DNA of 64,000 nt, taken from NCBI GenBank assembly GCA_903958395.1, contig CAJBSZ010000384.1:3156-67155 (forward strand). Direction: 5' to 3'. The stretch is from an uncultured bacterium. Its GTDB lineage: Bacteria > Verrucomicrobiota > Kiritimatiellia > CAIKKV01 > CAITUY01. Both the position numbers and the translations under genes were made by a program. Within the stretch, counting starts at the first letter, position 1. Each line of letters begins with the position of its first letter. Below, piece by piece: positions 4,676-64,000 of the stretch. The notes under the pieces were generated by a model. It made no database searches, had not been told where the DNA came from, and saw only the letters and a program-made list of their open reading frames with translations.

Positions 4676-4768
4676 CAGAATCCTCTTCCTTCAAATGGGT
4701 GACAATCAAACATGAACTTCCAAATCTAGCAGATGAGGTTGAATTTGACGATACTTTATGAAGGGGGC

Positions 4769-7580: not shown

Positions 7581-8441
7581 ATGAATAAAATATTGGACAG
7601 GACACAGTTGTCTGACGACGTTTATATGATGCGCCTGGACGCCCCGTATATTGCCCGTGAGCGGTTGCCCGGACAGTTCGTCATTCTCCAGCTCGACAAT
7701 GAGTTCGGCGAGCGGATACCCCTGACCATCGCGGATGCCGATCCCCTTGAAGGCTCCATTACCATCATCTTTCAGGCGGTCGGAAAAACGACTCATAATC
7801 TGGCTGACAAGCAGGTCGGCGAATCCGTCCAGAGCGTTCTCGGCCCGCTCGGTCAGCCAACCCACATTGAGAAATTCGGGACGGTGGTTTGTGTCGGAGG
7901 CGGTATCGGGGTGGCCCCCCTGCATCCGATTGTCAAGGGGATGAAGGCCGCCGGGAACCGGATCATTGTGATCGTGGGTGCCCGGACGAAGGGCCTGGTG
8001 ATCATGGAGGAGCAGATGCGCGCCCTGGCCGATGAGTTCATCATTTGCACCGATGATGGATCCCTGGGGCGCAAGGCGCTGGTAACGGAACCCCTGAAGG
8101 AGGTTTGCGGCCGGATCCCGAAGCCCGACATGGTGGTGGCGATCGGGCCGCCAATCATGATGAAATTCTGTGCGGAGGCGACTCGTCCTTTTGGAGTCCA
8201 CACCCTGGTGTCGTTGAATACCATTATGATTGACGGTACCGGGATGTGCGGCGGTTGCCGGGTGACGGTCGGTGGGCAGACGAAATTTGTCTGTGTGGAT
8301 GGCCCTGAGTTCGATGGGCACCAGGTGGACTTTGACAACATGATGCAGCGTTTGAAGGCCTACCGGAAACATGAGGATCACGCCCATAAACAATGTCATT
8401 TGGATGCTGAACTTCGCTCCAAGGAGAGTATTACCCCATGA
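7581..8441 (+). CDS. nfnA: NfnA/SudB-like ferredoxin-NADP+ reductase small subunit (FAD-binding plus C-terminal 2Fe-2S)
   Basis: PyrK-like fold motifs (RLPGQF, GGGIGVAPL) and C-terminal GMCGGCRV cysteine cluster; translationally coupled to the next gene. Confidence 0.75.
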   Translation: MNKILDRTQLSDDVYMMRLDAPYIARERLPGQFVILQLDNEFGERIPLTIADADPLEGSITIIFQAVGKTTHNLADKQVGESVQSVLGPLGQPTHIEKFGTVVCVGGGIGVAPLHPIVKGMKAAGNRIIVIVGARTKGLVIMEEQMRALADEFIICTDDGSLGRKALVTEPLKEVCGRIPKPDMVVAIGPPIMMKFCAEATRPFGVHTLVSLNTIMIDGTGMCGGCRVTVGGQTKFVCVDGPEFDGHQVDFDNMMQRLKAYRKHEDHAHKQCHLDAELRSKESITP

Positions 8442-9925: not shown

Positions 9926-10572
9926 TGGAAATTCCCATGAAGCCGTCCTTGCAGCGTTTTTTGCGGAACAAACTGATATCCGGTCTGTTTTTTCTGGTTC
10001 CCGTCTGGGTCACCTATGTGGTTGTCAAGGCCGCGTTCAATGCCATGGCCTCGGTGTTGCAGCCGCTGGTTGTCCTGCTCCCGTGGGAACTTCCGAACTG
10101 GGTGACGGTGGTCATTTCCATTGTGGCCTTCTTGCTTCTCGTCCTGCTGGTGGGGATTGTGGCTGGCCGCGTGGTGGGGCAACGGTTGCTCGGGTACGGG
10201 GAGTCCCTCATTCTGCGTATTCCGGTTATTAAGACCATCTATTCGGCGGCCAAACAGGTGGTGGATGCGGTCTCACTTCCGAATCACAAGACGTTCAAGT
10301 CCGTTGTTGTGGTGGAGTATCCCATGCCGGGAATCAAGACCATCGGGTTTCTGACAGGAACCACGACGGATCAGGATGGAAAGAAATGGGGGCGTGTTTT
10401 CATCCCGATGTCACCGCTTCCCACCTCCGGGTTTCTGCATCTGGTCCCGATTGGCGATGTCCGCGTCACGGACATGGCGGTTGAGGATGCCTTTAAGATG
10501 CTGATTTCGGGCGGCTTTATTGCGCCGGAGACGCTGGTGACCCGTCCGTTTTCCGAGGAAAGCAGACTCTAG
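9925..10572 (+). CDS. DUF502-family membrane protein
   Basis: N-terminal FFLVPVWVTYVV and two TM helices characteristic of DUF502. Confidence 0.65.
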   Translation: MEIPMKPSLQRFLRNKLISGLFFLVPVWVTYVVVKAAFNAMASVLQPLVVLLPWELPNWVTVVISIVAFLLLVLLVGIVAGRVVGQRLLGYGESLILRIPVIKTIYSAAKQVVDAVSLPNHKTFKSVVVVEYPMPGIKTIGFLTGTTTDQDGKKWGRVFIPMSPLPTSGFLHLVPIGDVRVTDMAVEDAFKMLISGGFIAPETLVTRPFSEESRL

Positions 10573-11159
10573 AACTTCACTTTGGGTGCCTGGCCTTCGG
10601 CGGGCGACTCCAGTTCAAACAGGGTGGCTGCGGCAAACCCGAAGCTATTGGCGATCACGACATTGGGGAAGGTTTCCCGGGCCGTGTTGTACACCATCAC
10701 GGAGTCATTATAGGCCTGCCGGGCGAATGAGATCTTGTTTTCCGTAGAGGTTAATTCCTCGCTCAGTTGCATCATGTTCTGATTCGCCTTCAGATCCGGA
10801 TAGGCCTCGGCCACCATCATCAGCCGGCCCAGGACTCCAGCCATCTGGCCTTCTGCCTTCATCAGGCCCTGCATGGCCAGGGCATCTTCCGGGTTTGCGG
10901 CGGCTTTCTGGTTTGCGGCATACGCCTGGTTCCGGGCGGAGATCACGGCTTCAAGGGTTTCGCGCTCGTGTTTGATATAGCCCTTGGCGGTTTCCACGAG
11001 ATTTGGAATCAAGTCATACCGCCGCTTGAGTTGCACGTCAATTTGGGAAAACGCGTTTTTGAAGCGGTTGCGAAGGGCGACCAGCCGGTTATAGATGCTG
11101 ATCACCATCAAAACCACCACCACCAGCACCGCGACCACCACCAGCATAAATTTATTCAT
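10569..11159 (-). CDS. lemA: LemA-family protein
   Basis: TM anchor then YNRLVALRN...RRYDLIPNLVETAKGY LemA signature; start set at MNKFMLVVV, preceded by a GAGGGAG RBS. Confidence 0.75.
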   Translation of the reverse strand: MNKFMLVVVAVLVVVVLMVISIYNRLVALRNRFKNAFSQIDVQLKRRYDLIPNLVETAKGYIKHERETLEAVISARNQAYAANQKAAANPEDALAMQGLMKAEGQMAGVLGRLMMVAEAYPDLKANQNMMQLSEELTSTENKISFARQAYNDSVMVYNTARETFPNVVIANSFGFAAATLFELESPAEGQAPKVKF

Positions 11160-11384
11160 GTTGCTATTCTCCCTCAGGGTTAAAGGACCTAACCATTGGA
11201 CGTGTTTATAGCCGGTTTCGGGGAGGCGGGGCAATAGGTAAATAAGAAGCTTTTTTGCTTGCGCCGCAAGGGGTTATTCGAGACTATCCCCGATTCTTAG
11301 TCGGGGGGGGGGAGGTTTTTTCGGGGGTGTCCCTGAGCCTTTTCGCCCGTGTAACTGAGTCAATAACAACAAGATAAGTATTGT

Positions 11385-13145
11385 ATGGCTAAAAAGCACA
11401 AGAAGAGCACTGCGCCAGCGGTTGTCGAAGACGCCGAAAGAGCCCAGATGTCTCAGATGTACGAAGAAACCCTCAAAACGTTCGCTGAAGGCTCGATCAT
11501 TCCCGGCAAAGTTCTGGAAATCCGGGGTGACGGCGTCCTCGTGGATATTGGTTATAAATCCGAGGGTATGATCCACGCGAGTGAATTTCCGGATATTTCC
11601 GTTGTCAAACCCGGCGATATTTTCAATGTCCTGCTCGAGGGGATTGAGGATGATGAAGGCCTGGTGATGCTCAGCAAGAGTCGCGCCGAGCAGCAGGAGC
11701 GTTGGAATGTGGTCCTTGAAACCTACAAGGAAGGCTCCATCGTCAATGGCAATGTGCACAGCCGCGTCAAGGGTGGCTTCATTGTGGATGTGGGCGGCAT
11801 TGAATCGTTCCTTCCCGGCTCCCAGGTGGATGTCTCCCCCGTGCACGATCCCGATGCGCTGGTGGGCAAGACGCTTGAGTTCAAGATTATCAAGATCAAT
11901 GACGACCGCCGCAATATCGTGCTGTCGCGCCGCGAACTGATGGAAGACCGTCGCCGCGACCGCAAGCGCGAGTTGTTGACCGAGATCAAGGTGGGTCAGG
12001 TTCGCAAGGGTATGATCAAGAATATCACCGACTTCGGTGTGTTCGTGGATCTCGACGGAATGGACGGACTGTTGCATATCACCGATATGAGCTGGGGCCG
12101 CATCAACCACCCGACCGAGATGGTCAAGGTGGGCGAGGAGCTCGAGGTCGTCATCCTGGATGTCAATATGGATAAGGAGCGCGTTTCGCTTGGGCTCAAG
12201 CAGCGCAGCACCAATCCGTGGGACAACATCGGGGCCAAGTACCCGGTCGGCAGCCGTTTGCGGGGCAAGGTGGTCAACCTGGTTCCCTACGGCGCGTTCG
12301 TCGAAATCGAGCAGGGCGTCGAGGGCCTGGTGCATGTGTCGGAAATTTCCTGGACCAAGCGCATTGCCCGCGCCTCCGATGTCCTGGCCACCGGCCAGGA
12401 AGTGGATGTCGTGGTGCTCAATGTCAACAAGGAAGAGCAGAAGATCGCGCTGGGTATCCGCCAGACCGAGGAAAATCCCTGGGACGGCGTTCGCATGCGT
12501 TATCCGCTCGGAGCCCGCGTGTCCGGCAAGGTTCGCAACCTGACCTCGTACGGCGCCTTTGTGGAGCTGGAAGAGGGGATTGACGGCATGGTTCATGTGT
12601 CTGACATGTCCTGGACCCGCAAGGTCAACCATCCTTCCGAGATCATGAAGAAGGGTGATGAGGTTTCCGCCGTGGTCCTGGAAGTGGATCCCGACAACCA
12701 ACGCATCAGCCTCGGCATGAAGCAGGCTCAGGAGGATCCGTGGTCCACGATCGCGGCCCGTCTGAAGATTGGCCAGATGGTCAAGGGCAAGGTCACCAAG
12801 CTGGCGTCCTTCGGCGCCTTCGTGGAGATCGAGGAGGGCATTGACGGCCTGGTTCACATCTCACAGATCAGCGATGATCGCGTGGAGAAGGTGAAGGACG
12901 TGCTGAAGGTCGGCCAGGAAGTTCAGGCCCGCATTGTTCGTATTGATCAGATGGATCGCAAGATCGGTCTGAGCATCAAGGCGGCGAGCGTGTCGGATGA
13001 GGAATTTGTCGTGAAAGACGAGATGCTCGAAGGGCTGCGCCCGGGCGAGGATCTTGTGGATCTGGCCGGGGCCTTTGACGCCGCTTTCGGTGCCAAGGAT
13101 GAGGAATGGCATCCGGGCGACAAGTCCGGCGGCAGAGACAAGTAA
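11385..13145 (+). CDS. rpsA: 30S ribosomal protein S1
   Basis: Six consecutive S1 domains (repeated G.V..I...GAFV..EG..GL.H.S) over 586 aa. Confidence 0.95.
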   Translation: MAKKHKKSTAPAVVEDAERAQMSQMYEETLKTFAEGSIIPGKVLEIRGDGVLVDIGYKSEGMIHASEFPDISVVKPGDIFNVLLEGIEDDEGLVMLSKSRAEQQERWNVVLETYKEGSIVNGNVHSRVKGGFIVDVGGIESFLPGSQVDVSPVHDPDALVGKTLEFKIIKINDDRRNIVLSRRELMEDRRRDRKRELLTEIKVGQVRKGMIKNITDFGVFVDLDGMDGLLHITDMSWGRINHPTEMVKVGEELEVVILDVNMDKERVSLGLKQRSTNPWDNIGAKYPVGSRLRGKVVNLVPYGAFVEIEQGVEGLVHVSEISWTKRIARASDVLATGQEVDVVVLNVNKEEQKIALGIRQTEENPWDGVRMRYPLGARVSGKVRNLTSYGAFVELEEGIDGMVHVSDMSWTRKVNHPSEIMKKGDEVSAVVLEVDPDNQRISLGMKQAQEDPWSTIAARLKIGQMVKGKVTKLASFGAFVEIEEGIDGLVHISQISDDRVEKVKDVLKVGQEVQARIVRIDQMDRKIGLSIKAASVSDEEFVVKDEMLEGLRPGEDLVDLAGAFDAAFGAKDEEWHPGDKSGGRDK

Positions 13146-51941: not shown

Positions 51942-52790
51942 ATGGGCGTGTACCGTTCTCTAACCATTCATCTTGAAGATGATTCGCTGATTCAGGCTGT
52001 GAGTCCGGCTGAATTAGCCATTCATCGGGGTGATTTTTGCGTGGTGGAGTGTCAGCGGGTGCCTGAATTCGGGCAGGTGGTTCAGTTGGCGGATCAGGAG
52101 GGAGCCCTCCCGCAGCGTGGCGCGGCACCGGTTGTCCTGCGCCGGGCGACCTTGCAGGATCAGGCCCGGGCGCGGGAAAACTCGTTGACCGGGCGCATGG
52201 CCTCCAAGACGGTTCATAAACGGGTTGATGAACAGAAACTTCCCCTTCGCCTGCTTCATGTGCGCTACAGTTTTGACCGGTCTATTCTCCACGTGACGTT
52301 CACGGCGGAGGAGCGTATCGAGTATACCGAATTTGTCAGATCATTGGCCGGTGAATTACAGGCGCGTATCGAGATGAAATTCCTTGGCGTCCGGGATGTC
52401 GCCCGGTTGGTGGGCGGCATGGGAGTCTGCGGTCGGTCGATCTGCTGCAAGTCATGGCTCAAGGATTTCGAGGGGGTGAGCGTTAAAATGGCCAAGACCC
52501 AGCGGCTGACACTCAATCCGACCACGATCAGCGGAATGTGCGGACGGTTGAAGTGCTGTCTGAAATACGAGTTCGACAGCTATCGCCAGATGGGGGAATC
52601 CCTTCCCCGTGACGGTGCGCCCGTACGGTGCGGGGATGGGTGTGGGTGTGTTTGGGACAAGGATATCATGGGGCAGCGGGTGAAGGTGCGTCTGGAGGAT
52701 GGGCGGATACTGGATTATCCCGCTGACGAGGTTCAGTCGATTCCTGAGTCCTTTCCCAGGAATGGAAGAAAACAGGAGATACAGGAATGA
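51942..52790 (+). CDS. PSP1 C-terminal domain protein (RicT/YaaT-like)
   Basis: Conserved PSP1 core LHVTFTAEERIEYTEFVRSLAGELQARIEMKFLGVRDVARLVGGMGVCGRSICCKSWL...GMCGRLKCCLKYE. Confidence 0.72.
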   Translation: MGVYRSLTIHLEDDSLIQAVSPAELAIHRGDFCVVECQRVPEFGQVVQLADQEGALPQRGAAPVVLRRATLQDQARARENSLTGRMASKTVHKRVDEQKLPLRLLHVRYSFDRSILHVTFTAEERIEYTEFVRSLAGELQARIEMKFLGVRDVARLVGGMGVCGRSICCKSWLKDFEGVSVKMAKTQRLTLNPTTISGMCGRLKCCLKYEFDSYRQMGESLPRDGAPVRCGDGCGCVWDKDIMGQRVKVRLEDGRILDYPADEVQSIPESFPRNGRKQEIQE

Positions 52791-53698
52791 AGCCGGTTCA
52801 ATTAGTCGTGGTCGGGTCGATCGGGTTGGATACCATTGAAACTCCGCATGCCCGGAAGTCAGAGATTCTCGGGGGCTCGGTCAGCTATGCCTGCGCCGGT
52901 GCCTCGTTTTTCGCCACTACCGGAATGGTGGGGGTGGTCGGCGCGGATTTTCCGGAACCCTGCGTGGACGTCTACCGTCAGTTCGGGATTGATCTGAAGG
53001 GGCTACAGAAGGCGCCGGGTAAAACCTTCCGCTGGTCCGGCGTCTATGAACAGGACATGAATAACCGCCGGACCCTTGCCACGGATCTCAATGTCCTGGG
53101 GACATTCATGCCTGAACTTCCGGATGACTACACCCGGGCACCGTTTCTATTCCTGGCCAACATTTCGCCCGAATTGCAGCTTCATGTCCTGTCCCAGGTC
53201 AAGTCACCCAAGTTCGTTGTGGCCGACACGATGGATCTCTGGATCAATATTGCCCGCAAGCCCCTGATGGAGGTCATCAGCGCGGTCGATCTGCTGACGC
53301 TCAACGAATCCGAGGCGCGACTGTTGTCCGGTGAGAACAACCTGATCAAGGCGGCCCGGATGATTCTGGGCTGCGGACCCAAGTATGTCATCATCAAGAA
53401 GGGCGAACACGGGGCGATGCTGTTCTCGAAATCAGGGATGTTCATCGTGCACGCCTATCCGCTGGAAGTGGTCCATGATCCCACTGGCGCCGGGGACACC
53501 TTTGCCGGCGGATTCATGGGTGCCTTGAGCGAGCGCGGGGATGTAAATGAGGCGGCTATCCGCAAGGCCATGAGTTACGGCAGCGTCGTGGCGTCCTTCG
53601 GCGTGGAGGATTTCAGTCTGGCCCGCCTTCAGAATTTGTCGCGAAGCGATATTGAACAGCGGCATGAGGCATTCCGGGCATTGACCCATCTGGGCTAG
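52787..53698 (+). CDS. PfkB-family carbohydrate/nucleoside kinase
   Basis: Ribokinase-like fold with the C-terminal DPTGAGDTFAGGF anion-hole motif. Confidence 0.75.
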   Translation: MKPVQLVVVGSIGLDTIETPHARKSEILGGSVSYACAGASFFATTGMVGVVGADFPEPCVDVYRQFGIDLKGLQKAPGKTFRWSGVYEQDMNNRRTLATDLNVLGTFMPELPDDYTRAPFLFLANISPELQLHVLSQVKSPKFVVADTMDLWINIARKPLMEVISAVDLLTLNESEARLLSGENNLIKAARMILGCGPKYVIIKKGEHGAMLFSKSGMFIVHAYPLEVVHDPTGAGDTFAGGFMGALSERGDVNEAAIRKAMSYGSVVASFGVEDFSLARLQNLSRSDIEQRHEAFRALTHLG

Positions 53699-53767
53699 AA
53701 AGTCCCGGCGCCTCCGGATTTTTCATGGACAATAACTATCGGGAGGACTATAAATATTTGCTCATAC

Positions 53768-53783
53768 CGTTAATTTCTTAACG
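53768..53783 (+). promoter_or_regulatory. candidate Rex operator upstream of the first hydrogenase operon
   Basis: Perfect 6-4-6 palindrome CGTTAAtttcTTAACG, 20 nt upstream of the hydC1 ATG; resembles the TTGTTAA-N4-TTAACAA Rex box class. Confidence 0.5.
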
Positions 53784-53803
53784 AAATATCGAGGAGCACG
53801 ACG

Positions 53804-54352
53804 ATGGCAGAATCTAAACATCTGTGTGACTGTCAACAGCAGGTTGATGAAGTCAAATGTCTTAAACGCCTGGATGTCGTCATCAAGGAATATCGGGAAA
53901 AGCCCGGGGCATTGATTCCTGTGCTCCAGATCGCCCAGGGGCTGTTCGGCTATCTTCCGGAAGTGGCGCTCAAGCGGATCAGTCTCGGCCTGGACAAATC
54001 CTACAGTGAAGTGGCCGGGGTGGTCGGGTTCTACTCGTTTTTTTCCACCGTTCCACGGGGCCGCAATCTGATCCGGGTCTGCCTGGGGACGGCGTGCTAT
54101 GTTCGTGGGGGCAAACAGGTGCTTGAGGCCATCAAGAAGCATCTGGGCATTGATGTGGGGCAGACCACGCCCGACAAACTTTTTTCGCTCGAGGTGGCCC
54201 GGTGTTTCGGCGCCTGTGGACTGGCCCCCGCCATCACCGTGAATGACGATGTCCATCAGCGGGTCAAGTCCGCGAAGGTGCATGAGATCATTAATTCCTA
54301 CAGGAAAGTTCCAAAAGGCAAGGCGGCCAGGCAGAAGAGGGTGAAGTCATGA
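53804..54352 (+). CDS. hydC: NuoE-like [2Fe-2S] thioredoxin-fold subunit (HydC/HndA type)
   Basis: IPVLQIAQ...CLGTACYVRGG...CFGACGLAP NuoE cysteine pattern; GAGGAG RBS. Confidence 0.85.
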   Translation: MAESKHLCDCQQQVDEVKCLKRLDVVIKEYREKPGALIPVLQIAQGLFGYLPEVALKRISLGLDKSYSEVAGVVGFYSFFSTVPRGRNLIRVCLGTACYVRGGKQVLEAIKKHLGIDVGQTTPDKLFSLEVARCFGACGLAPAITVNDDVHQRVKSAKVHEIINSYRKVPKGKAARQKRVKS

Positions 54353-57300
54353 CAGCACACAGGAAGATCGCAACCCCGGCCGCCCTGAAGGCTTTGGCGG
54401 CTGAATACAAAATCAAAGTTGAAGGCCGGATCCAGACCGGCGGTAAGGCACCCTCCGGAAAGATCAAGCATCATGTCCTCGTCTGTACCGGCGGCGGATG
54501 CATTGCATCGGGTGCGCTCGATGTCAAGGCCGCGCTGGAACAGGAAATCAAGCGGCTTGGCCTGGCTTCCCAGGTGAAGGTGTTTGCTACCGGGTGCCTG
54601 GGTCCCTGTGCGGTTGGTCCCGTGGTCGTGGTCTATCCCGAAGGGACATTCTACGAGAATCTCACGCCGAAGCGCGCGGTCCGGATTGCCCGGGAACACC
54701 TGAAGAAAGGGAAGATTGTGGAGGAGTTTGTCCACAAGAAGGAGCCCTTCCAAACCCCCGTGCCGGCCATGAAGGACATCGAGTTCCTGAACAAGCAGAC
54801 CAAGATCGTCCTGCGCAATTGCGGCATCATCGATCCCCTCAGTATTGAGGAGTATATCGGGCGCGACGGGTATCTGGCGTTGGCCAAAGTCCTGACCACG
54901 ATGAAGCCCGACGAGGTCATTGAGACCATTAAACAATCCGGCCTGCGCGGGCGGGGCGGGGCGGGGTTCCCAACATGGATGAAGTGGAGCCTGACCCGTA
55001 AGGCGGCGGGCGGTGAGAAGTACATGCTCTGCAACGCCGATGAGGGCGATCCCGGAGCGTTCATGGATCGTAGCGTGCTGGAGGGCGACCCCCACAGCGT
55101 GATCGAGGCCATGGTTATCGGCGCCTATGCGGTGGGCGCGTCAAAGGGGTTTGTGTATTGCCGTGCGGAATATCCGTTGGCGGTGGAACGGTTGACCAAA
55201 GCCATTGAAAGCGCCCGGGAGTCCGGCTTTCTGGGGAACGCCATTTTCGGATCGGATTTTAATTTTGACCTTGAAATCCGAATGGGAGCAGGCGCTTTTG
55301 TCTGCGGCGAGGAAACCGCGCTCATGACCTCCATCGAGGGGCAGCGCGGCGAGCCGCGCCCGCGTCCCCCCTTCCCGGCGAACAAGGGACTCTGGGGCAA
55401 GCCCAGCGTTTTAAATAATGTGGAAACCTATGCCTCCATCCCTGCCATTATCAATCGGGGGGCGGACTGGTTTGCCTCGTACGGAACCGGGAAGAGCAAG
55501 GGGACCAAGGTGTTCGCGCTGGCTGGTGCCGTGACCATGACGGGGCTGGTGGAAGTGCCGGTCGGAACCCCGCTCGGCGAGATCATCTATGATATCGGGG
55601 GCGGCATCCCCAACGGGAAGAAGTTCAAGGCGGCCCAGATTGGCGGGCCCTCAGGCGGGTGTATTCCGCGCCAGCACCTTAATGTGCCGGTGGACTATGA
55701 ATCCCTGGCGGAGCTCGGCGCGATCATGGGATCCGGCGGCTTGATCGTCATGGATGAGGACACCTGCATGGTGGATGTGGCCCGTTATTTCCTGGATTTT
55801 GTTCAGGATGAGTCGTGTGGAAAGTGCGTGCCCTGCCGCGTGGGCACCAAGCGAATGCTCGAGATTCTTGACCGGATTTGCGAGGGCCATGGCGAGATGG
55901 AGGATATCGATCGCCTGATCTCGCTGGGACACCAGATCCGCGACACGGCTCTGTGCGGACTCGGTCAGACGGCCGCCAATCCGGTTCTTTCGACGATCCG
56001 GCATTTCCGGAACGAGTACGAGGCGCATATCCGGCAGAAGCATTGCGAAGCCGGGATTTGCCCCGGGCTGGTTCGGGCTCCCTGCCAGAGCGCCTGTCCC
56101 GCCCATGTGGATGTTCCGGGATTTGTATCGCTGGTTGGCGAGAAACGGTATTCCGAAGCGTTAAAACTGCATCGTGAGCGCAATCCGTTTGCCTCGGTTT
56201 GTGCCCGGGTCTGTTTCCATACCTGTGAGGATAAGTGCCGCCGGGCCTCGCTCGATGATTCCGTTTCGATCCGGGGCATCAAGCGCTACATGGTGGATCA
56301 GGAGCTCAAGCCCCTGATTCCCGCCGTCCGGGAGAACAAGGAAAATGCGAAGCGCAAGGTGGCGATCATCGGTGCCGGTCCGGCAGGCTTGTCCTGCGCC
56401 TATTTTCTGGCCCGGCTGGGGTATCAGCCGAAGGTCTTCGAGGCGGAACCGCGGCCCGGGGGCATGCTGGTGCAGACCATTCCGGCCTACCGGTTACCGC
56501 GTGAGTTGCTGGCCCGGGAAATCCGGATGATTGAGCGGATGGGGGTGGAGATCAAGACGGGTAAGAAACTCGGTCGCGACTTTACCCTGGAGTCCCTCAA
56601 GAATCAGGGCTATGACGCCGTCTTTGTGGGCGTTGGTGCACCGGATGGAGTTCGTGTGGAGATGCCGGGCAGTGACGCCCGGGGCGTGGTTGAATCCATT
56701 GCCTTCCTGCGCGAATATAATCTCCGGGGGTCCGTCAAGGTGGGCAAGAAGGTGATCGTGGTCGGTGGCGGTAATGCGGCGATTGACGCCGCCCGGACCG
56801 CGCTGCGCCTGGGCGCGGCGGTGACGGTGGTGTACCGGCGCACCGAAGCAGAAATGCCGGCTTATGCCGAGGAAATCGAGCAGGCCCGCCAGGAGGGGGT
56901 TATTCTGCAGACGCTGACTGCGCCCGAGGAAATCATCGTCAAGAACGGTTCCGTGGCTGGGATGCGCTGCCGCCGGATGAAGCTGGGCGAGTTTGACCGG
57001 TCCGGCCGTCGCCGCCCGGAAGGGAGCGGGGAGGAACTGGTGCTGGATGCCGACCAGGTCATTTTGGCCATCGGCCAGACACTGGATGCCAAAAAGGTGA
57101 TTGGCGATCTTCCTGTTGAATTGATCGGGAAGAGCCAGATCATGGCGGAGGCCCTGACGGGAAAAACGAGCGTTCCCTGGCTCTTTGCCGGTGGCGATGC
57201 CGCCGTGGGCCCGTCGTCCGTCGTGGAGGCCGTGGCGTCCGGCGAGCGCGCGGCGGTCGGGATGGATGCGTACCTGACGGGTGAATCGCACGCCTTCTGG

Positions 57301-57522
57301 CGGGTCGAGGCGGTCGTGGAGACCGGGTTTGATCCCGATGCCGATCCCCGGATGGATCCCCGTGGCACGCTGGTGCTGTTGCCGGCGGAACGGCGGACAA
57401 ATAACTTTGATGAAGTGGAGCAATCCTGGTCGGAGACTGAGGCCGTGCGACAGGCCCGCCGGTGTCTCCGGTGTGATTACAGGGCGAAGGAAGAAAGCGA
57501 GAGTGTGCCATGCCGAAAGTGA
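54349..57522 (+). CDS. fusion protein: N-terminal [2Fe-2S] thioredoxin-like domain + NuoF-like FMN/NADH-binding core + C-terminal GltD/NfnB-like NADPH:FAD oxidoreductase module
   Basis: Residues 1-120 HndB-like 2Fe-2S (VCTGGGC...CLGPC); 130-560 NuoF (GLRGRGGAGFPT FMN site, ESCGKCVPCRVG 4Fe-4S); 560-1057 GltD (CEAGICPG...CQSACPAHVD, CARVCFHTCEDKC, VAIIGAGPAGLSCAYF, VIVVGGGNAAIDAA). Continuous 1057-aa ORF. Confidence 0.85.
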   Translation: MTAHRKIATPAALKALAAEYKIKVEGRIQTGGKAPSGKIKHHVLVCTGGGCIASGALDVKAALEQEIKRLGLASQVKVFATGCLGPCAVGPVVVVYPEGTFYENLTPKRAVRIAREHLKKGKIVEEFVHKKEPFQTPVPAMKDIEFLNKQTKIVLRNCGIIDPLSIEEYIGRDGYLALAKVLTTMKPDEVIETIKQSGLRGRGGAGFPTWMKWSLTRKAAGGEKYMLCNADEGDPGAFMDRSVLEGDPHSVIEAMVIGAYAVGASKGFVYCRAEYPLAVERLTKAIESARESGFLGNAIFGSDFNFDLEIRMGAGAFVCGEETALMTSIEGQRGEPRPRPPFPANKGLWGKPSVLNNVETYASIPAIINRGADWFASYGTGKSKGTKVFALAGAVTMTGLVEVPVGTPLGEIIYDIGGGIPNGKKFKAAQIGGPSGGCIPRQHLNVPVDYESLAELGAIMGSGGLIVMDEDTCMVDVARYFLDFVQDESCGKCVPCRVGTKRMLEILDRICEGHGEMEDIDRLISLGHQIRDTALCGLGQTAANPVLSTIRHFRNEYEAHIRQKHCEAGICPGLVRAPCQSACPAHVDVPGFVSLVGEKRYSEALKLHRERNPFASVCARVCFHTCEDKCRRASLDDSVSIRGIKRYMVDQELKPLIPAVRENKENAKRKVAIIGAGPAGLSCAYFLARLGYQPKVFEAEPRPGGMLVQTIPAYRLPRELLAREIRMIERMGVEIKTGKKLGRDFTLESLKNQGYDAVFVGVGAPDGVRVEMPGSDARGVVESIAFLREYNLRGSVKVGKKVIVVGGGNAAIDAARTALRLGAAVTVVYRRTEAEMPAYAEEIEQARQEGVILQTLTAPEEIIVKNGSVAGMRCRRMKLGEFDRSGRRRPEGSGEELVLDADQVILAIGQTLDAKKVIGDLPVELIGKSQIMAEALTGKTSVPWLFAGGDAAVGPSSVVEAVASGERAAVGMDAYLTGESHAFWRVEAVVETGFDPDADPRMDPRGTLVLLPAERRTNNFDEVEQSWSETEAVRQARRCLRCDYRAKEESESVPCRK

Positions 57523-59282
57523 CCATAGATGGGACTTCAGTGGAGGTTCCCGAGGGGACCTCGATTCTCAATGCGGCAAAATTGGTTGGGGTCAGGATTC
57601 CGACGTTATGTCACATGGAGGACATTCATGCCATCGGGGCCTGCCGCGTTTGCGTGGTGGAAGTGGAGGGGGCCAAAACCCTCGCCGCCTCTTGTGTCAT
57701 GCCGGTGTTCGACGGAATGAAAATCTCGACCCACACCAAACGGGTTCGTGAGGCGCGGCGGACGGTGGTGGAGTTATTGTTGTCCGAGCATAATGGCGAT
57801 TGCCAGGTGTGTGACCGCAATAACGACTGTGAACTTCAGGCTCTGGCCCATGAACTCGACATCAAGTCGATCCGGTTCGAAGGCGTCAAAACCGCAGCGG
57901 GTTTGGATACGAGCACGCCGGGTGTGGTTCGTGACAACGGCAAGTGCATCAAATGCCGGCGGTGTGTGGCGGTATGCGGGCAGATCCAGTCGGTGGGGGC
58001 ACTTTTCCCGCAGTTCCGTGGCTTTAAAACCGTGATCGGTCCCGCGTTCGGCGCGGATCTCGAGACGGTGGCCTGTGTCCAGTGCGGACAATGCGCGGCG
58101 GTGTGCCCCGTGGGGGCCATTTCCGAAAAAAGCCATATCTCGGAGGTGTGGAAGGCGCTGGACGACAAATCCAAGACCGTGGTGGTTCAGGTGGCACCGG
58201 CGGTGCGCGCTTCATTGGGTGAATGTTTCGGGATGGAACCCGGTACCCTGGTGACGGGCAAAATGGTGGCGGCCTTGCGGCGGCTCGGTTTTTCAGCGGT
58301 GTTCGACACCAATTTCACCGCCGATCTGACCATCATCGAGGAAGGACACGAGCTGTTGCATCGCCTGACGCTGGCGGTCAAGGATAAGAAGCCCGTGGCC
58401 CTGCCTCAGTTCACCAGTTGTTCGCCCGGCTGGATCCGCTACATGGAGTATTTCTATCCCGAAATGCTGCCGTACCTTTCCTCCTGCAAATCGCCCCAGC
58501 AGATGTTTGGCGCGCTGGCGAAGACCTATTGGGCCGGGAAAGTCGGAAAGAAGGCGGAGGACATCGTTGTGGTTTCCGTGATGCCGTGCCATGCCAAGAA
58601 ATCCGAATCCGAGCGGCCGGAGATGAATGACAGCGGTGTGCGGGATGTGGATGTGGCACTGACCACCCGTGAGTTGGGCCGGATGATCAAGGAGGCGGGA
58701 ATCGACTTCACTATGCTTCCGGAAGAGGGAATGGATTCCCTCATGGGAGCCTCAACCGGTGCGGCGGATATTTTCGCCAATAGCGGCGGGGTGATGGAAG
58801 CGGCGCTTCGGACCGTGTGGGAAGTGGTTACCGGACGGGAGTTGCCGTTCCTAAATCTCCATGTGCCGCCCCTGATGGGATTGAGCGGGATCAAACAAGC
58901 GGAAGCGACACTCACCGGTACGCTTCCGGCGTGGTCCTTCCTGGAGGGAGTCACCGTCAAGGTGGCGGTGGCGTCCAGCCTCAGCAATGCCAAGGTGCTG
59001 GTGGACAAGATCAAGACGGGCGAAGTGTCGTATCACTTCGTGGAAATCATGACGTGCCCCGGCGGCTGCATCGGCGGGGGCGGCCAGCCTCGCAAGACGA
59101 CCAACGAAATCCGGCAGAAGCGAATCAACGCCATCTACCGGGAGGATGAGGGGAAGAAACTCCGGAAATCGCACGAGAACCCGGAGGTTCTTAAGATCTA
59201 CGCGGAGTTTCTGGGTGAACCCCTCGGCAAAGTCTCCCATCACCTCCTTCATACGGAATATGGTGCCCGGCAACGGGTCTAA
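57510..59282 (+). CDS. hydA: [FeFe]-hydrogenase catalytic subunit (M3-type, group A bifurcating-like) with atypical L1 motif
   Basis: N-terminal 2Fe-2S plus 2x CxxCxxCxxxCP; H-cluster motifs L2 VMPCHAKKSE and L3 EIMTCPGGCIGGGGQP present; L1 is FTSCSPGW (Ser codon TCG at 58422-58424). Confidence 0.9.
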   Translation: MPKVTIDGTSVEVPEGTSILNAAKLVGVRIPTLCHMEDIHAIGACRVCVVEVEGAKTLAASCVMPVFDGMKISTHTKRVREARRTVVELLLSEHNGDCQVCDRNNDCELQALAHELDIKSIRFEGVKTAAGLDTSTPGVVRDNGKCIKCRRCVAVCGQIQSVGALFPQFRGFKTVIGPAFGADLETVACVQCGQCAAVCPVGAISEKSHISEVWKALDDKSKTVVVQVAPAVRASLGECFGMEPGTLVTGKMVAALRRLGFSAVFDTNFTADLTIIEEGHELLHRLTLAVKDKKPVALPQFTSCSPGWIRYMEYFYPEMLPYLSSCKSPQQMFGALAKTYWAGKVGKKAEDIVVVSVMPCHAKKSESERPEMNDSGVRDVDVALTTRELGRMIKEAGIDFTMLPEEGMDSLMGASTGAADIFANSGGVMEAALRTVWEVVTGRELPFLNLHVPPLMGLSGIKQAEATLTGTLPAWSFLEGVTVKVAVASSLSNAKVLVDKIKTGEVSYHFVEIMTCPGGCIGGGGQPRKTTNEIRQKRINAIYREDEGKKLRKSHENPEVLKIYAEFLGEPLGKVSHHLLHTEYGARQRV

Positions 59283-59296
59283 TCCCATGAGGGTGG

Positions 59297-59337
59297 GGAC
59301 GGCTCTCCGAGCCGTCCGGGGCGGCCTCGGAGAGGCC
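59297..59337 (+). terminator. two GC-rich hairpins after hydA (terminator-like; weak T-tract)
   Basis: GGACGGCTC-tcc-GAGCCGTCC (9 bp) and GGCCTC-gga-GAGGCC (6 bp); no strong U-run follows. Confidence 0.35.
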
Positions 59338-59398
59338 TCCCTGCCCTGAAGGAGGAATCAAAGTCGGATAATTCTCTACATCAGAATTTTGTCTAAAA

Positions 59399-59414
59399 TG
59401 TTAAAACTTTAACG
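59399..59414 (+). promoter_or_regulatory. candidate Rex operator upstream of rex (autoregulation)
   Basis: TGTTAAaactTTAACG, a 6-4-6 inverted repeat with one mismatch to the palindrome, 64 nt upstream of the rex ATG. Confidence 0.5.
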
Positions 59415-59477
59415 TTAAACATTTGACAGAGCTTGGGGCGATGGTGTAAACGTCTTTCCTTTCAAAAAAGGCCCCTT

Positions 59478-60125
59478 ATGAACACTGAAGACATGACCCG
59501 CTTAAAAATTCCGGTGGCGGTGGTTCGGCGGATGCCGAAATACCTGACCCAGGCCCAATACTTGCGTCAGGAAGGGGTGCAGTGGGTATCGTCGTTGTCC
59601 CTGGCCGAGGCGTTGGGCCTGACAAGTTCCACCGTGCGGCAGGATCTTTCACACATTGATTTTCAAGGGGTTTCCAAGCGCGGGTATTCAACCGTGGGCC
59701 TTGAGGCTGCTCTCGCCCGGACCCTCGGGGTTGACCATGACATCACCTGCATCCTGGTCGGTGCCGGAAACCTGGGCCGGGCCCTTGCCCTGCATGAGGG
59801 ATTCGGGCGGCAGGGCTTCAAGATTGTTGGCGTGTTTGACAGTTCTCCCGCCGTTGTGGGGAAAAAGGTCGGGCATTTTATTGTCCGGCCCATGGCGGAT
59901 CTGGTCGCCGTGGTGGCGCAGCAGAAAGTGGAGATCGGCATCCTGTCCGTTCCGCACGAGGCGGCACAGGCCGTGGCCGACCAGTTGATTTTGTCGCGAG
60001 TGCGCGGGTTGTTGAACCTGACCACCGCGCATCTCCGGACGCCGGCGGCGGTACCGGTGGTGGATACCCGCGTTTTGTCGAGTTTAAGGGAATTGGCCTA
60101 TTCGGTGAGGAGCCGGCAGGTATAG
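59478..60125 (+). CDS. rex: redox-sensing transcriptional repressor Rex
   Basis: N-terminal winged helix (RRMPKYL...LGLTSSTVRQDLSHI) and C-terminal Rossmann NADH-binding domain (ILVGAGNLGRAL). Confidence 0.85.
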   Translation: MNTEDMTRLKIPVAVVRRMPKYLTQAQYLRQEGVQWVSSLSLAEALGLTSSTVRQDLSHIDFQGVSKRGYSTVGLEAALARTLGVDHDITCILVGAGNLGRALALHEGFGRQGFKIVGVFDSSPAVVGKKVGHFIVRPMADLVAVVAQQKVEIGILSVPHEAAQAVADQLILSRVRGLLNLTTAHLRTPAAVPVVDTRVLSSLRELAYSVRSRQV

Positions 60126-60175
60126 GATTGAAAAGGGGTTCAGGGTTCGGGGTTGTAGTGCTTTAGAAAGGAATC

Positions 60176-62095
60176 ATGATGAGTAATCCAATGGAGCAGT
60201 TGCTTGAACGGCGCGAAAATGCCGAAAAACGACTTCGCCGGGAGAAATTTAACGCCAAGGTTCGTATCACGGTGGGATCCGCCACCTGTGAGAATGCGGC
60301 CGGGGCGCCTGACGTTTTCAAGAAGATTGAGGAATTGATCAGGAAGCACGGCTTGAAGGATGTTACCCTGAGCCGCGTGGGTTGTACCGGCCGGTGCGAC
60401 ATGGAGCCGGTGGTGACGGTGTTCAGCCAGCGAACCACTCCTGTGAAATACATCGCCATGACGCCCGACAAGGTGGAGAAGGTGTTCGACTCGCATGTCC
60501 TGAAGGCGATTCCGCTCAAGGCTCTGGCGATGCCCGTCGGGGTCGTTCAGGATACGGATTTCACCGAGGAGAAGCTCTGGGCGGATGCGAGACTCACGGA
60601 CCGGTTTTCGTCCGTTTTCGGTGATGTTCACTTTTTTGGCAAGCAGATGCGCATGACGCTGCGCAACTGCGGCGTGATTGACCCCGAGGACATGGATGAA
60701 TATCTCATGGTTCGCGGCTACCAGGCGGCGGTGAAGGTCCTCACCGAGATGACGCCCAATGATGTGGTCAATACCGTCATTAAGTCGGGCCTGCGTGGTC
60801 GCGGCGGCGGCGGGTTTTCAACGGGGGTTAAATGGAATTTCGCCCTCGCCCAGAAGAACGAGGAGAAGTACATCGTCTGCAATGCAGACGAGGGGGATCC
60901 CGGTGCGTTCATGGATCGCAGCACCATCGAGGGTGATCCCCACACCGTGATTGAGGGCATGATCATCGGAGGCTATGCGATTGGCGCCCGGGTGGGTTAT
61001 GTGTACATTCGGGCCGAGTATCCCCTCGCCATCAAGCGGCTGGAGCTCGCTATTGCGGCGGCCCGCCAGGCGGGGTTCCTCGGAACCGGAATTTTTGGAA
61101 CGAACTGGGATTTTGACATCGAGATCCGGCTCGGCGCAGGCGCATTTGTGTGCGGCGAGGAAACCGCCCTGATCCGGTCGATCGAAGGGGAACGCGGCAT
61201 GCCGCGGCCCCGTCCGCCGTATCCCGCCGCGTCGGGGTTGTGGGGCAAGCCCACGGTGATCAACAATGTTGAAACCTTTGCCAACATCCCCGTGGTGATT
61301 CTGGATGGGCCCGAATGGTTTTCGTCCATCGGTACGGCCAAGAGCAAGGGAACCAAGGTCTTCGCCCTGGCCGGAAAAGTCTGCAACACAGGCCTGGTTG
61401 AAGTGCCCATGGGCACAACGCTGCGGGATGTGGTGTACGGAGTCGGCGGCGGCATTCGCGACGGAAAGAAATTCAAGGCGGTCCAGACGGGCGGCCCCGC
61501 GGGCGGCTGCCTGCCCGAATCGTACCTCGACACCCCGGTGGACTATGAGTCGTTGACGGCGGCCGGCTCGATGATGGGCAGCGGTGGCATGATCGTGATC
61601 GACGAGGATTCCTGCATGGTGGACGTGGCCCGGTTCTTCCTGGATTTCACCCAGGACGAGTCCTGCGGAAAATGTACCCCGTGCCGGGAGGGGACCAAGC
61701 GCATGCTGGAAATCCTGCAGCGCATCACCTCGGGGCGTGGGGTTGAAGGCGATATCGAGAAGTTGCTGCGTCTGGGCGACACGATCAAGCGAACGTCGTT
61801 GTGCGGCCTGGGTCAGGCATCGCCGAATCCGGTGATCAGCACGATCAAGCATTTCCGTGACGAATATGAGGCGCATATCCGCGAGAAGCGGTGCCCGGCG
61901 GGTGTCTGCGCGGGGCTCCTCACCTTTTCGATCATTGCGGAGAAGTGCATCGGGTGCGGGGCCTGCAAGCGCAAGTGTCCCGTTCCCTGTATCGCGGGGA
62001 AGCCGAAGGAAGTTCATGAAATTGATCAGGCCCGCTGTATCAAGTGCGGGCAGTGTTTTGAGGCATGCAAGTTTGACGCAGTGAAGAGGAGCTAG
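60176..62095 (+). CDS. hydB: bifurcating [FeFe]-hydrogenase NuoF-like subunit HydB (2Fe-2S Trx-like + FMN/NADH core + C-terminal 2x[4Fe-4S])
   Basis: GLRGRGGGGFSTGVKW FMN motif, ESCGKCTPCREG, C-terminal CIGCGACKRKCP and CIKCGQCFEAC ferredoxin motifs. Confidence 0.9.
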   Translation: MMSNPMEQLLERRENAEKRLRREKFNAKVRITVGSATCENAAGAPDVFKKIEELIRKHGLKDVTLSRVGCTGRCDMEPVVTVFSQRTTPVKYIAMTPDKVEKVFDSHVLKAIPLKALAMPVGVVQDTDFTEEKLWADARLTDRFSSVFGDVHFFGKQMRMTLRNCGVIDPEDMDEYLMVRGYQAAVKVLTEMTPNDVVNTVIKSGLRGRGGGGFSTGVKWNFALAQKNEEKYIVCNADEGDPGAFMDRSTIEGDPHTVIEGMIIGGYAIGARVGYVYIRAEYPLAIKRLELAIAAARQAGFLGTGIFGTNWDFDIEIRLGAGAFVCGEETALIRSIEGERGMPRPRPPYPAASGLWGKPTVINNVETFANIPVVILDGPEWFSSIGTAKSKGTKVFALAGKVCNTGLVEVPMGTTLRDVVYGVGGGIRDGKKFKAVQTGGPAGGCLPESYLDTPVDYESLTAAGSMMGSGGMIVIDEDSCMVDVARFFLDFTQDESCGKCTPCREGTKRMLEILQRITSGRGVEGDIEKLLRLGDTIKRTSLCGLGQASPNPVISTIKHFRDEYEAHIREKRCPAGVCAGLLTFSIIAEKCIGCGACKRKCPVPCIAGKPKEVHEIDQARCIKCGQCFEACKFDAVKRS

Positions 62096-62097
62096 TC

Positions 62098-63858
62098 ATG
62101 ACAACAGAAAAAAAAGTAACGCTGTGGATTGACGGCGTCAAGGTGACGGTGCCTGAAAAGACCACCATTCTCCAGGCGGCCGACTCAATCAATATCAATG
62201 TTCCCAGCCTGTGCTATCACCCCGACCTGAGCGTGATTGGCGCCTGCCGGGTTTGCGTGGTGGAGGTCGACGGGCAACGCAATCCGGTGGCTTCCTGCTC
62301 GTATCCGGTGGCCGAGGGAATGAAGGTCAAGACCTCCTCGCCCCTGCTGCGGCGCCTCCGTCGTGATGTCGTTGAGCTGATCCTGGACAATCATCCCCAG
62401 GATTGCCAGTCGTGCGTGCGGAACGGAACCTGCGAGTTGCAGAAGCTGGCCTACGATCTGGGGGTCCGGGAACGCCTGTTCGAGGGCGAACGCAAGCGCT
62501 TTCCCGTGGACACTTCGTCCCCGGTGCACCGCAATCCCGAGAAGTGCATCTTGTGCGGCCGCTGTGTGCGGGTTTGTGATGAGGTGCAGGGCGTTCATAA
62601 TCTGAGCGTCCAGCACCGCGGTTTCCATAATGTCGTGGCTCCGGCGCATGACTGCAAGATGATTGATTCCGTTTGTATTCATTGCGGGCAGTGCGTCAAC
62701 GTCTGCCCCACAGCCGCCTTCACGGAGCAGGATGCCACGGAGTCGGTGTTCGAGGCCTTGTCGAACCCGGATCTTCATGTCGTGGTTCACACCGCGCCGG
62801 CGATCCGGGCTACGATCGGCGAGGGGTTCGGGTTCCGGCCGGGCACGCCGGTGACTGGAAAGCTGGTCACGGCACTGCGTATGGCCGGCTTTCACAAGGT
62901 GTTCGACACGAATTTCGGAGCCGACCTCACGATCATCGAGGAGTCCACGGAGTTTCTGAGCCGGGTCCAGAAAAAAGAACGGCTCCCGTTGATCACATCC
63001 TGTTCGCCCGGGTGGGTGAATTTCATGGAGCGCTTTTATCCGGAGCTGATTCCCCTGACCTCTACCTGCAAGTCGCCGATGAGCATGCTATCGACGCTTC
63101 TGAAAACCTACTACGCCCAGCAGATGGGAGTGGATCCCGAGAAAATCTTTGTGGTGGCGGTGATGCCCTGTACGGCCAAGAAGTTCGAGGCGAAACGCTC
63201 CGAGCACATGGCGCCGTGGGGCAAACCCTATACGGATGCGGTGCTGACCACCCGGGAACTGGTCTGGATGCTGAAGTGTCTCGGTGTGGATTTTCATAAT
63301 CTTGAGGACAGTGCCTTTGACTCCCCGCTCGGAGTCTCCTCGGGTGCGGCGGATATCTTCGGCGCGACAGGCGGCGTCATGGAGGCGGCTTTGCGTACGG
63401 CCTACGAGAAGATTACCGGGCAGGAGCTGGAAGCCCTTGATTTCGAGACGGTTCGCGGGGTGGAGGGCGTCAAGGAGACGTCGATCCAGATCAATGGCCT
63501 GACCATCAATATCGGCGTGGCCAATGGTCTCCAGAACGCCAAGAACCTGCTGGACCGCGTCGCCAGCGGCGAGAAGCAATACCACATCATCGAGATTATG
63601 GCGTGTCCGGGCGGTTGCGTGGCCGGTGGCGGGCAACCCTATCCGCCCCGCGGTATGCATGTGCTGGACCCGGAGTTGGGTCGATTGCGGGCCAAGGCGC
63701 TCTACTCGATTGACGGCAGCAAGTCGCTGCGGAAATCGCATGAGAATCCCGCCATCGAACTGTTGTATGAGAATTTCCTGGGCGCGCCGAACAGTCATCT
63801 GTGCCATGAGTTGCTGCATACCCATTATGAACCCAAGACCCCGCGAGGTGTGAAATGA
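62098..63858 (+). CDS. hydA: [FeFe]-hydrogenase catalytic subunit, second paralog, same atypical L1
   Basis: Same architecture as the first hydA; L1 ITSCSPGW (Ser TCG at 63004-63006), L2 VMPCTAKKFE, L3 EIMACPGGCVAGGGQP. Confidence 0.9.
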   Translation: MTTEKKVTLWIDGVKVTVPEKTTILQAADSININVPSLCYHPDLSVIGACRVCVVEVDGQRNPVASCSYPVAEGMKVKTSSPLLRRLRRDVVELILDNHPQDCQSCVRNGTCELQKLAYDLGVRERLFEGERKRFPVDTSSPVHRNPEKCILCGRCVRVCDEVQGVHNLSVQHRGFHNVVAPAHDCKMIDSVCIHCGQCVNVCPTAAFTEQDATESVFEALSNPDLHVVVHTAPAIRATIGEGFGFRPGTPVTGKLVTALRMAGFHKVFDTNFGADLTIIEESTEFLSRVQKKERLPLITSCSPGWVNFMERFYPELIPLTSTCKSPMSMLSTLLKTYYAQQMGVDPEKIFVVAVMPCTAKKFEAKRSEHMAPWGKPYTDAVLTTRELVWMLKCLGVDFHNLEDSAFDSPLGVSSGAADIFGATGGVMEAALRTAYEKITGQELEALDFETVRGVEGVKETSIQINGLTINIGVANGLQNAKNLLDRVASGEKQYHIIEIMACPGGCVAGGGQPYPPRGMHVLDPELGRLRAKALYSIDGSKSLRKSHENPAIELLYENFLGAPNSHLCHELLHTHYEPKTPRGVK

Positions 63859-64000
63859 AGAACGAACTGCTTCAAAAGGAAATAGACAAGGCGATGGCTC
63901 TCCTGCCCGAGCCGGTGGTGCGCTACATTCAGGACTGTGCGAAGAAAAAAAACCCGAACAGCCATCTGATTTCGGTGCTTCACAAGGTTCAGGAACACTT
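63855..64000 (+). CDS. hydC: NuoE-like subunit HydC, 5' fragment (runs off window end)
   Basis: ATGA overlap with the hydA stop; translation MKNELLQKEIDKAMALLPEPVVRYIQDCAKKKNPNSHLISVLHKVQEH matches the NuoE N-terminus. Confidence 0.7.
   Translation, partial: MKNELLQKEIDKAMALLPEPVVRYIQDCAKKKNPNSHLISVLHKVQEH

Follow-up and report, generated by a model that had tools for sequence, protein, structure and literature searches.

Candidate Rex operators at two [FeFe]-hydrogenase operons flanking rex in an uncultured Kiritimatiellia bacterium

Repression of hydrogenase genes by Rex has been described in Caldicellulosiruptor bescii, where electrophoretic mobility shift assays support its action on the [FeFe]-hydrogenase structural genes, on hydG, and on rex itself (PMC6391272). 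TTGTTAA-type Rex sites have also been predicted upstream of hfsABCD (TTGTTAATAAATTAACTA), ech, and hydG in T. saccharolyticum (PMC5886521). Here we describe a 64,000-nucleotide stretch of contig CAJBSZ010000384.1 (assembly GCA_903958395.1; the whole stretch is "the window" below) from an uncultured bacterium of the Kiritimatiellia (Verrucomicrobiota), in which a rex gene lies between two [FeFe]-hydrogenase operons, hydC1-hydB1::gltD-hydA1 (operon 1) and hydB2-hydA2-hydC2 (operon 2). Three palindromes of the GTTAA-N4-TTAAC type, one before operon 1 and two before rex, are probably operators of the neighboring Rex that act on both hydrogenase units, a reading to which we assign a probability of about 0.8.

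The locus resembles the Rex regulon of C. bescii and C. saccharolyticus in that Rex would act on [FeFe]-hydrogenase genes and on rex through promoter-region palindromes, which in those organisms are 18–20 bp long (PMC6391272). It is unlike that regulon, which belongs to Gram-positive thermophiles and has the consensus TTGTGAA-N4-TTCACAA (PMC6391272), in that the bacterium belongs to the Planctomycetes-Verrucomicrobia-Chlamydiae (PVC) group, its half-sites read (C/T)GTTAA, a putative −35 element is covered by two abutting sites, and its hydrogenases are of two Bfu sub-types. With the clostridial/Thermoanaerobacterales-type box, whose sites in PMC5886521 are themselves predictions, it shares the GTTAA-N4-TTAAC core and a hydrogenase target; the outer TT/AA is not kept, and position 2 is C in four of six half-sites. 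The two hydrogenase types have already been described in silico by Zheng & Huang (2024; PMC11406978), a paper that contains no mention of Rex; what sets the window apart from their description is that both sub-types stand side by side around rex.

Operators, promoters, and the Rex protein

An earlier sequence-only reading had reported one palindrome 20 nt before hydC1 and another in the leader of rex, both assigned to the TTGTTAA-N4-TTAACAA class. Both palindromes are present at the positions given (Table 1), and the interval between the first and the hydC1 start is exactly 20 nt (53784–53803). The class assignment holds for the GTTAA-N4-TTAAC core and fails at the outer positions, where C/G occupies four of the six half-sites, outer TT/AA is never found, and TTG/CAA is matched only in part. 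That reading had also overlooked a third site, O2 (14-mer match at 59414–59427), which abuts the first rex-upstream site, O1, and shares its first two bases with it, so that rex is preceded by a predicted tandem double operator. All three sites have the core expected of a Rex operator, an inverted repeat of 16–20 bp whose arms (GTGAA/GTTAA and TTCAC/TTAAC) are parted by four variable bases.

Table 1. Genes, predicted operators, and putative transcription signals of the locus (window coordinates)
Feature	Coordinates	Strand	Description and evidence
Rex box, operon 1 (predicted)	53768..53783	.	CGTTAA-TTTC-TTAACG (CGTTAATTTCTTAACG); perfect 16-bp palindrome
Rex box O1, distal, rex promoter (predicted)	59399..59414	.	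TGTTAA-AACT-TTAACG (TGTTAAAACTTTAACG)
Rex box O2, proximal, rex promoter (predicted)	59413..59428	.	CGTTAA-ACAT-TTGACA (CGTTAAACATTTGACA)
Putative sigma-70-type promoter, operon 1	53726..53754	+	−35 TGGACA (53726–31), 17-nt spacer, −10 TATAAA (53749–54)
Likely −35 of rex promoter	59423–28		TTGACA, the right half of O2; TTGAC invariant in 8 aligned loci
Putative −10 of rex promoter	59447..59452	+	TAAACG, 18 nt past TTGACA; sequence and alignment
GC-rich stem-loop after hydA1	59285..59352	+	Inverted repeat I1; minimum free energy −56.6 kcal/mol, z −3.05
rex	59478..60125	+	215 aa; PF06971 (E 5.6e-16) and PF02629 (E 1.7e-14)
hydC1	53804..54352	+	BfuC/NuoE-like [2Fe-2S] subunit, 182 aa; PF01257, E 1.7e-47
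hydB1::gltD	54349..57522	+	Fusion, sub-type I BfuB, 1057 aa; Pfam and PDB matches
hydA1	57510..59282	+	[FeFe]-hydrogenase catalytic subunit, 590 aa; PF02906 and PF02256, H-cluster motifs
hydB2	60176..62095	+	Canonical BfuB/HydB, 639 aa; Pfam
hydA2	62098..63858	+	[FeFe]-hydrogenase catalytic subunit, 586 aa; complete H-cluster motifs
hydC2 (5' end, cut by window end)	63855..64000	+	NuoE-like; translation

The palindromes do not occur by chance. The motif GTTAANNNNTTAAC with at most one mismatch is found three times in the 64 kb, as compared with 0.23 ± 0.47 matches expected from 100 dinucleotide-preserving shuffles, none of which reached three, and beyond the three sites no 16-mer in the window lies within two mismatches of TGTTAANNNNTTAACA. 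We scanned the window and ∼160 kb of related PVC loci with a Rex position weight matrix (PWM). This symmetrised matrix was trained on 16 sites found upstream of rex at other loci; neither the window nor any hydC1 site contributed to it. O1 (24.75 bits), O2 (23.77 bits), and the hydC1 box (17.97 bits) ranked first, second, and third, the last with no hydC1 site in the training set, and the next-best position in the window scored 9.58 bits. When the 64 kb was shuffled 1000 times in blocks of local composition, 23 shuffles reached 17.97 bits anywhere and none reached 23.77. Within the related loci, the sole match of at least 13 bits that was not immediately 5' of rex or hydC1 was a weak one (13.5 bits, locus L008).

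The regulator encoded between the operons is a bona fide Rex-family protein, with an N-terminal winged-helix domain and a C-terminal Rossmann NAD(H)-binding domain. In the open reading frame (ORF) list the gene begins at TTG 59433, but it is the in-frame ATG at 59478 that lines up with relatives. The protein can be aligned from end to end with Rex structures from T. maritima (5zz5, E 5e-34) and T. ethanolicus (3wg9) and with T-Rex of T. aquaticus (1xcb), and its nucleotide-binding motifs GAGNLGRA (GxGxxG) and VGVFDS (FD) align with those structures; by homology, its affinity for DNA should depend on NADH/NAD+. The recognition helix LTSSTVRQDLSHIDF (residues 48–64) is invariant across PVC Rex proteins that are 48–95% identical overall (L001–L013, L023, and L030), which justifies the pooling of sites from PVC loci; in Rex proteins further removed, the residues here are (I/V)R(K/R/Q)D. 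The helix carries Gln (VRQDL), as does that of T. ethanolicus (IRQDL); T. maritima has Lys (IRKDL), and most other Rex proteins in the loci collected have Lys or Arg. Among the Lys-type Rex proteins, that of L092 alone is accompanied by a clear box, and its half-sites are GTGAA...TTCAC. These cases hint at a rule by which Gln would specify GTTAA, in a very small sample.

All three sites overlap or abut −35/−10-like elements that are conserved in related loci, and both promoters are proposed from this conservation. Before operon 1, the −35 GAC and the −10 TA are invariant in the alignments of related loci, and the box begins 13 nt past the putative −10. Before rex, the right half of O2 is itself the likely −35, because TTGAC(A/G) of the proximal site is followed by a TAnnnn hexamer at 17–18 nt in every lineage (in L030, TTGACA-18-CATAAT). 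The rex sites would therefore overlap the −35 or lie 5' of it, and the earlier placement of the rex box in the transcribed leader is probably wrong. A consensus promoter and terminator scan gave nothing useful at either promoter: it flagged neither that of operon 1, whose −10 lacks the final T, nor that of rex, whose −10 is a weak match to consensus.

Between rex and hydB2 (stop 60125 to ATG 60176) lies a 50-nt spacer that has no significant structure (z −0.27) and in which no Rex box, by mismatch search or PWM, and no promoter-like or terminator-like site was found. The sequence-only reading had likewise seen no box before hydB2 and had suggested that operon 2 is read through from rex. Its suggestion is consistent with our results: because the rex-hydB adjacency is kept in relatives (see below) and the spacer is free of boxes and structure, co-transcription of rex, hydB2, hydA2, and hydC2 is the simplest reading. 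On the other side of the rex promoter, the GC-rich stem-loop that follows hydA1 folds better than all of 200 shuffles and has no T-run; it is possibly a terminator or a transcript-stabilising element that divides operon 1 from the rex promoter. We rejected the idea that it is a repeated REP-like element, as a second copy was not found in the window. At the same place in L002 stands GGCCTCGGAGAGGCCTCC, which is related to the hairpin motif. Neither the two leaders nor the surroundings of the hairpin matched an Rfam family (E ≤ 1).

Conservation of the sites and of gene order in related loci

A scan of a genome collection with Rex yielded 13 loci of the PVC group (metagenome-assembled genomes of Verrucomicrobiota, Kiritimatiellia, and Victivallales), with Rex proteins 48–92% identical to that of the window. 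A metagenome scan with HydC1 and four contig look-ups via the fusion protein added L023–L025 and L103–L106 from the same clade, and these searches further brought in a large number of sub-type I operons of other phyla, which are more distant. The order rex-hydB-hydA-hydC is kept in L001–L007, and rex is directly followed by hydB in these and in L104–L106. L001, L002, and L007 have operon 1, whereas L003 and L011 lack it and have rex directly after pfkB; the 5.7-kb operon is thus a clean insertion or deletion between pfkB and rex (L003 2827–4491 and L011 2357–3784, as compared with 52787–59478 in the window).

The half-sites are kept in orthologous upstream regions while their surroundings diverge, with L105, L007, and L106 as exceptions. 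A double box precedes rex in the window and in L001, L002, L003, L005, L011, L023, and L105, a degenerate double box does so in L004, L006, and L104 (O1 being conserved in L104), and the more distant L008, L010, L012, L013, and L030 have a single box, which in the last four is the same hybrid of box and −35 followed by a TAnnnn −10 at 17–18 nt. In an alignment of eight rex-upstream sequences (mean identity 57%), the invariant positions are in essence GT.AAA, TAACGTTAA, and TTTGAC, with variation in both 4-nt spacers and in the flanks. The alignments upstream of hydC1 have an invariant GTTAA...TT.ACGA in addition to the −35 and −10 bases. The spacer of the hydC1 box is TTTC in the window, L001, and L023, AGAA in L024, AAAT in L025, TTAT in L103 (with TTCAC as the right half), and ATAT in L104. 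The box stands at a fixed distance past a conserved T.GAC.-N17-TA.AA. element and from 15 to 51 nt before the ATG; its PWM score is 19.4 bits in L024 and 26.3 bits in L025.

In other loci the boxes are placed differently. In the independent lineage of L030 (Rex 50% identical), a sub-type I operon directly follows rex, and there are two boxes, the first 5' of rex and the second (GTTAAATAATTAAC) in the interval from rex to hydC1; L041, also independent, has GTTAAGAAATTCAC about 110 nt before hydC1; and L106 has a tandem double box (5307–5336) about 125 nt before hydC1. In L106, a response-regulator gene (PF00072) lies between hydA1 and rex at a spacing of 1 nt, with no box before the pair (11011–12049), which suggests one long transcription unit. 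A similar gene ends just before rex in L007, also with no box (4163–4729). The operator module appears to shift to the head of whichever unit holds rex.

Distant hydC1 homologues (at most 75% identity, other phyla) mostly lie close behind another ORF and have no Rex box, and they are uninformative on the hydC1 site. In many of the distant sub-type I operons among L026–L102 (e.g., L054, L070, L072–L074, L084, and L099), the other ORF lies about 10–130 nt upstream of hydC1, and, read in the relevant frame, it seems to end in a conserved C-terminus of the ...GLAALRIKE type. These lineages seem to rely on some other upstream gene or regulator.

The two hydrogenases

Pfam searches and translation confirmed the gene order hydC1, nuoF::gltD (hydB1::gltD in Table 1), hydA1, rex, hydB2, hydA2, hydC2 that the sequence-only reading had given. 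Its description of the two operons as paralogous is right in that they are homologous; recent paralogues they are not, as HydA1 and HydA2 are 48% identical, and HydB1 has a lower identity to HydB2 (56%) than to proteins from other phyla (about 70%). By domain content the operons belong to two distinct Bfu sub-types.

HydB1 has the NuoF/HydB core (2Fe-2S, FMN, SLBB, and 4Fe-4S) and then, where a 2x[4Fe-4S] domain would normally form the C-terminus, a GltD/NfnB-like module of Fer4_20 and FAD/NAD(P)H (Pyr_redox_2) domains (PF14691 at residues 563–653 and PF07992 at residues 670–965, both after PF10589). Its PDB matches are to HydB/NfnB for residues 40–577 and to the GltD modules of StnC/NfnA for residues 573–1046, and its sequence carries the NADPH-type GxGxxA and YRR motif. 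HydA1, with the H-cluster motifs TSCSPGW, MPCHAKKSE, and EIMTCPGGCIGGGGQP, has the bifurcating HydA of T. kivui (8a6t) and A. woodii (7q4v) as its best PDB matches (E about 1e-181). With its DPD_II (Fer4_20) and FAD/NAD(P) domains, adjacent BfuC, and H-cluster-bearing BfuA, operon 1 has the features of sub-type I BfuABC, which lacks BfuD, has DPD_II and an FAD/NAD(P) domain substituted for the B3/B4 domain of BfuB, and is reported from Verrucomicrobiota/Kiritimatiellota (PMC11406978). The fusion family comprises at least 120 cluster representatives that are at least 67% identical over their full length, among them proteins of Lentisphaerae, Planctomycetota, Elusimicrobia, and Hydrogenedentes, and we found no biochemical characterisation of it.

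Operon 2 has the features of a HydABC of the Bfu type (group A3), the electron-bifurcating class of [FeFe]-hydrogenases, with all three motifs in HydA2, a HydB2 consisting of N-terminal 2Fe-2S, FMN, 4Fe-4S, and C-terminal 2x[4Fe-4S] domains, and a NuoE-like HydC (complete in L001). The ATG of hydC2 overlaps the hydA2 stop (ATGA), and a full-length hydC2 homologue lies 3' of hydA2 in L001 and L003–L006. The match in the published scheme is sub-type III with its 'BAC' gene order; the 'double B5' of that sub-type (PMC11406978) corresponds to HydB of L004–L007 and L106, and HydB2 of the window has the N-terminal 2Fe-2S domain once. In L004 (10676–12838), L005, L006, L007, and L106 (12131–14296), the BAC-type HydB is about 720 aa long and has the N-terminal 2Fe-2S thioredoxin-like domain twice.

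Several other assignments were considered and rejected. Stn (StnABC of Sporomusa ovata, PMC7483475) and Nfn-Bfu (NfnABC, PDB 9n5u) share with operon 1 a NuoE/NuoF-type BfuBC core and a GltD/NfnB-like FAD-NADP(H) module; however, in those enzymes the GltD module is on the NuoG-like BfuA, which has no H-cluster, whereas in the window it is on BfuB, and BfuA is a complete hydrogenase with all three H-cluster motifs, so that operon 1 does not encode such a transhydrogenase. Nor is it a HydDB of [FeFe] group A2, in which a GltD domain occurs without NuoF, because the neighbor of HydA1 has both. Both HydA proteins have TSCSPGW instead of TSCCPxW (residues 302–308 of HydA1 and 300–306 of HydA2), the Ser standing at what we take, by CpI numbering, to be the position of the second Cys, a ligand of [4Fe-4S]H. 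This does not disqualify them, as the biochemically active HydA1 of A. woodii (7q4v) has the same variant; HydA1 of T. kivui has TSCCPSW.

In HydB1, the GltD-like FAD/NADP(H) module stands where HydB would otherwise have its ferredoxin-side B3/B4 clusters, and operon 1 might for this reason couple H2 to NADH and NADPH together, as a confurcating enzyme or an H2-linked transhydrogenase, and not to NADH and ferredoxin. Such enzymology was already put forward as a hypothesis by Zheng & Huang (2024; PMC11406978), and for the window we regard it as speculative. If it were true, the differing operator architecture of the two units would let the cell switch between ferredoxin-linked and NADPH-linked H2 production as NADH rises.

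No hydE, hydF, or hydG maturase gene was found in the window, the remainder of which is housekeeping. Positions 8438–9925 (+) encode a stand-alone GltA/NfnB-type NADPH-dependent FAD/Fe-S oxidoreductase (TIGR01316, 608 bits), the second GltD-like module in the window, with no Rex box nearby; an unannotated 215-aa ORF (9925–10572, +) lies downstream of it.

Regulation by Rex and its alternatives

On the reading that we favor, a Rex dimer would, at a low NADH/NAD+ ratio, sit on the single palindrome just past the operon 1 −10 and block initiation or promoter clearance, and Rex on O1/O2, whose proximal half-site would be the rex −35, would occlude RNA polymerase and so repress rex together with the co-transcribed hydB2-hydA2-hydC2. 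As NADH accumulates, Rex would leave the DNA, both NADH-linked hydrogenases would be made, and excess reducing equivalents would be vented as H2. The differing number, position, and score of the operators could give the two units different thresholds, i.e., the differential control that the sequence-only reading had envisaged. Its proposal of Rex operators before operon 1 and rex, with control of both hydrogenases, is supported in silico by the non-chance occurrence of the sites, their conserved footprints, the true Rex encoded between the operons, the conserved adjacency, and the precedent in other bacteria. The existence of the sites, their departure from chance, their conservation in evolution, the conserved gene order, and the membership of the regulator in the Rex family are observed; we infer the promoter positions, co-transcription, Rex binding, NADH responsiveness, and the direction of regulation.

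Several observations weigh against this reading. The outer C/G in place of TTG/CAA departs from the published consensus sequences; the hydC1 site on its own is only moderately significant by score; O1 and O2, which have 2 bp in common, stand at a center-to-center distance of just 14 bp, and simultaneous occupancy by two dimers is hypothetical; and both proposed promoters have imperfect −10 hexamers and were missed by a consensus scanner. Furthermore, L105, whose fusion protein is 83% identical, has no box before hydC1 while keeping the double box before rex, and L007 and L106 have no box directly before rex, so Rex wiring is not universal. Operon 1 of L105 may escape control by Rex, or it may be transcribed by read-through from pfkB; only 63 nt (5392–5456) separate pfkB from hydC1 there.

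Rex could also repress nothing but its own gene at O1/O2, with hydB2-hydA2-hydC2 transcribed mainly from a separate Rex-independent promoter in or after rex, which would leave only operon 1 and rex responsive to NADH. The interval of 50 nt from rex to hydB2, which in relatives reaches about 90 nt, is compatible with such a promoter. However, rex and hydB are adjacent and in the same orientation in every relative examined, across a range of 65–95% Rex identity, the spacer holds nothing that resembles a promoter or a terminator, and in L106 rex lies downstream of other genes with no box, implying long transcription units, so we consider a separate promoter unlikely. A doubt of another kind concerns the protein that binds. 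The palindromes might be operators of a different regulator, for example one of the LacI type on the central TTTAACGTTAAA at the O1/O2 junction (59408–59419), a perfect 12-bp palindrome with a central CG that is invariant in relatives, or they might reflect AT-rich promoter architecture with no regulator at all, and the departure of the outer bases from the Rex consensus would suit either account. Yet the hydC1 site and the single boxes of L008, L010, L012, L013, and L030 keep the N4 spacing where there is no junction palindrome, the motif is always found together with a rex gene, its core is that of the published clostridial/Thermoanaerobacterales-type half-sites, and no other regulator gene is conserved at the locus; these points make another protein, or none, quite improbable.

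The hydC1 box might, finally, be a chance palindrome, the sites at the rex promoter alone being real, as could be argued from its lower score (17.97 bits), from the 2.3% of shuffled windows that contain an equal or better match, and from its absence in L105. This is hard to reconcile with its fixed distance from a conserved −10 in six loci with divergent spacers and flanks, with the higher-scoring versions in L024 and L025, or with the independent boxes before hydC1 in L030, L041, and L106, and we regard it as very improbable. Operation of Rex at all three sites, with control of both hydrogenase units, is the reading that we retain.

The circuit is best seen as a well-supported but ordinary case, in an under-studied phylum, of a regulation known from other anaerobes. 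By itself it opens no new question, and the most novel element at the locus is the FAD/NADP(H)-bearing hydrogenase rather than its regulation. With this locus, the Rex-hydrogenase circuit, known from Gram-positive thermophiles and from clostridia, would reach into uncultured anaerobes of the PVC group (Kiritimatiellia/Verrucomicrobiota), which are abundant fermenters of polysaccharides in lakes and sediments. It also provides a clade-specific predicted operator, (C/T)GTTAA-N4-TT(A/G)AC(G/A), that can be used to predict redox regulons from metagenome-assembled genomes. For the biochemically uncharacterised sub-type I Bfu hydrogenase, it would be a first physiological hint, namely that the enzyme may be switched on by an excess of NADH, and this helps in choosing the conditions and hosts in which to characterise it.

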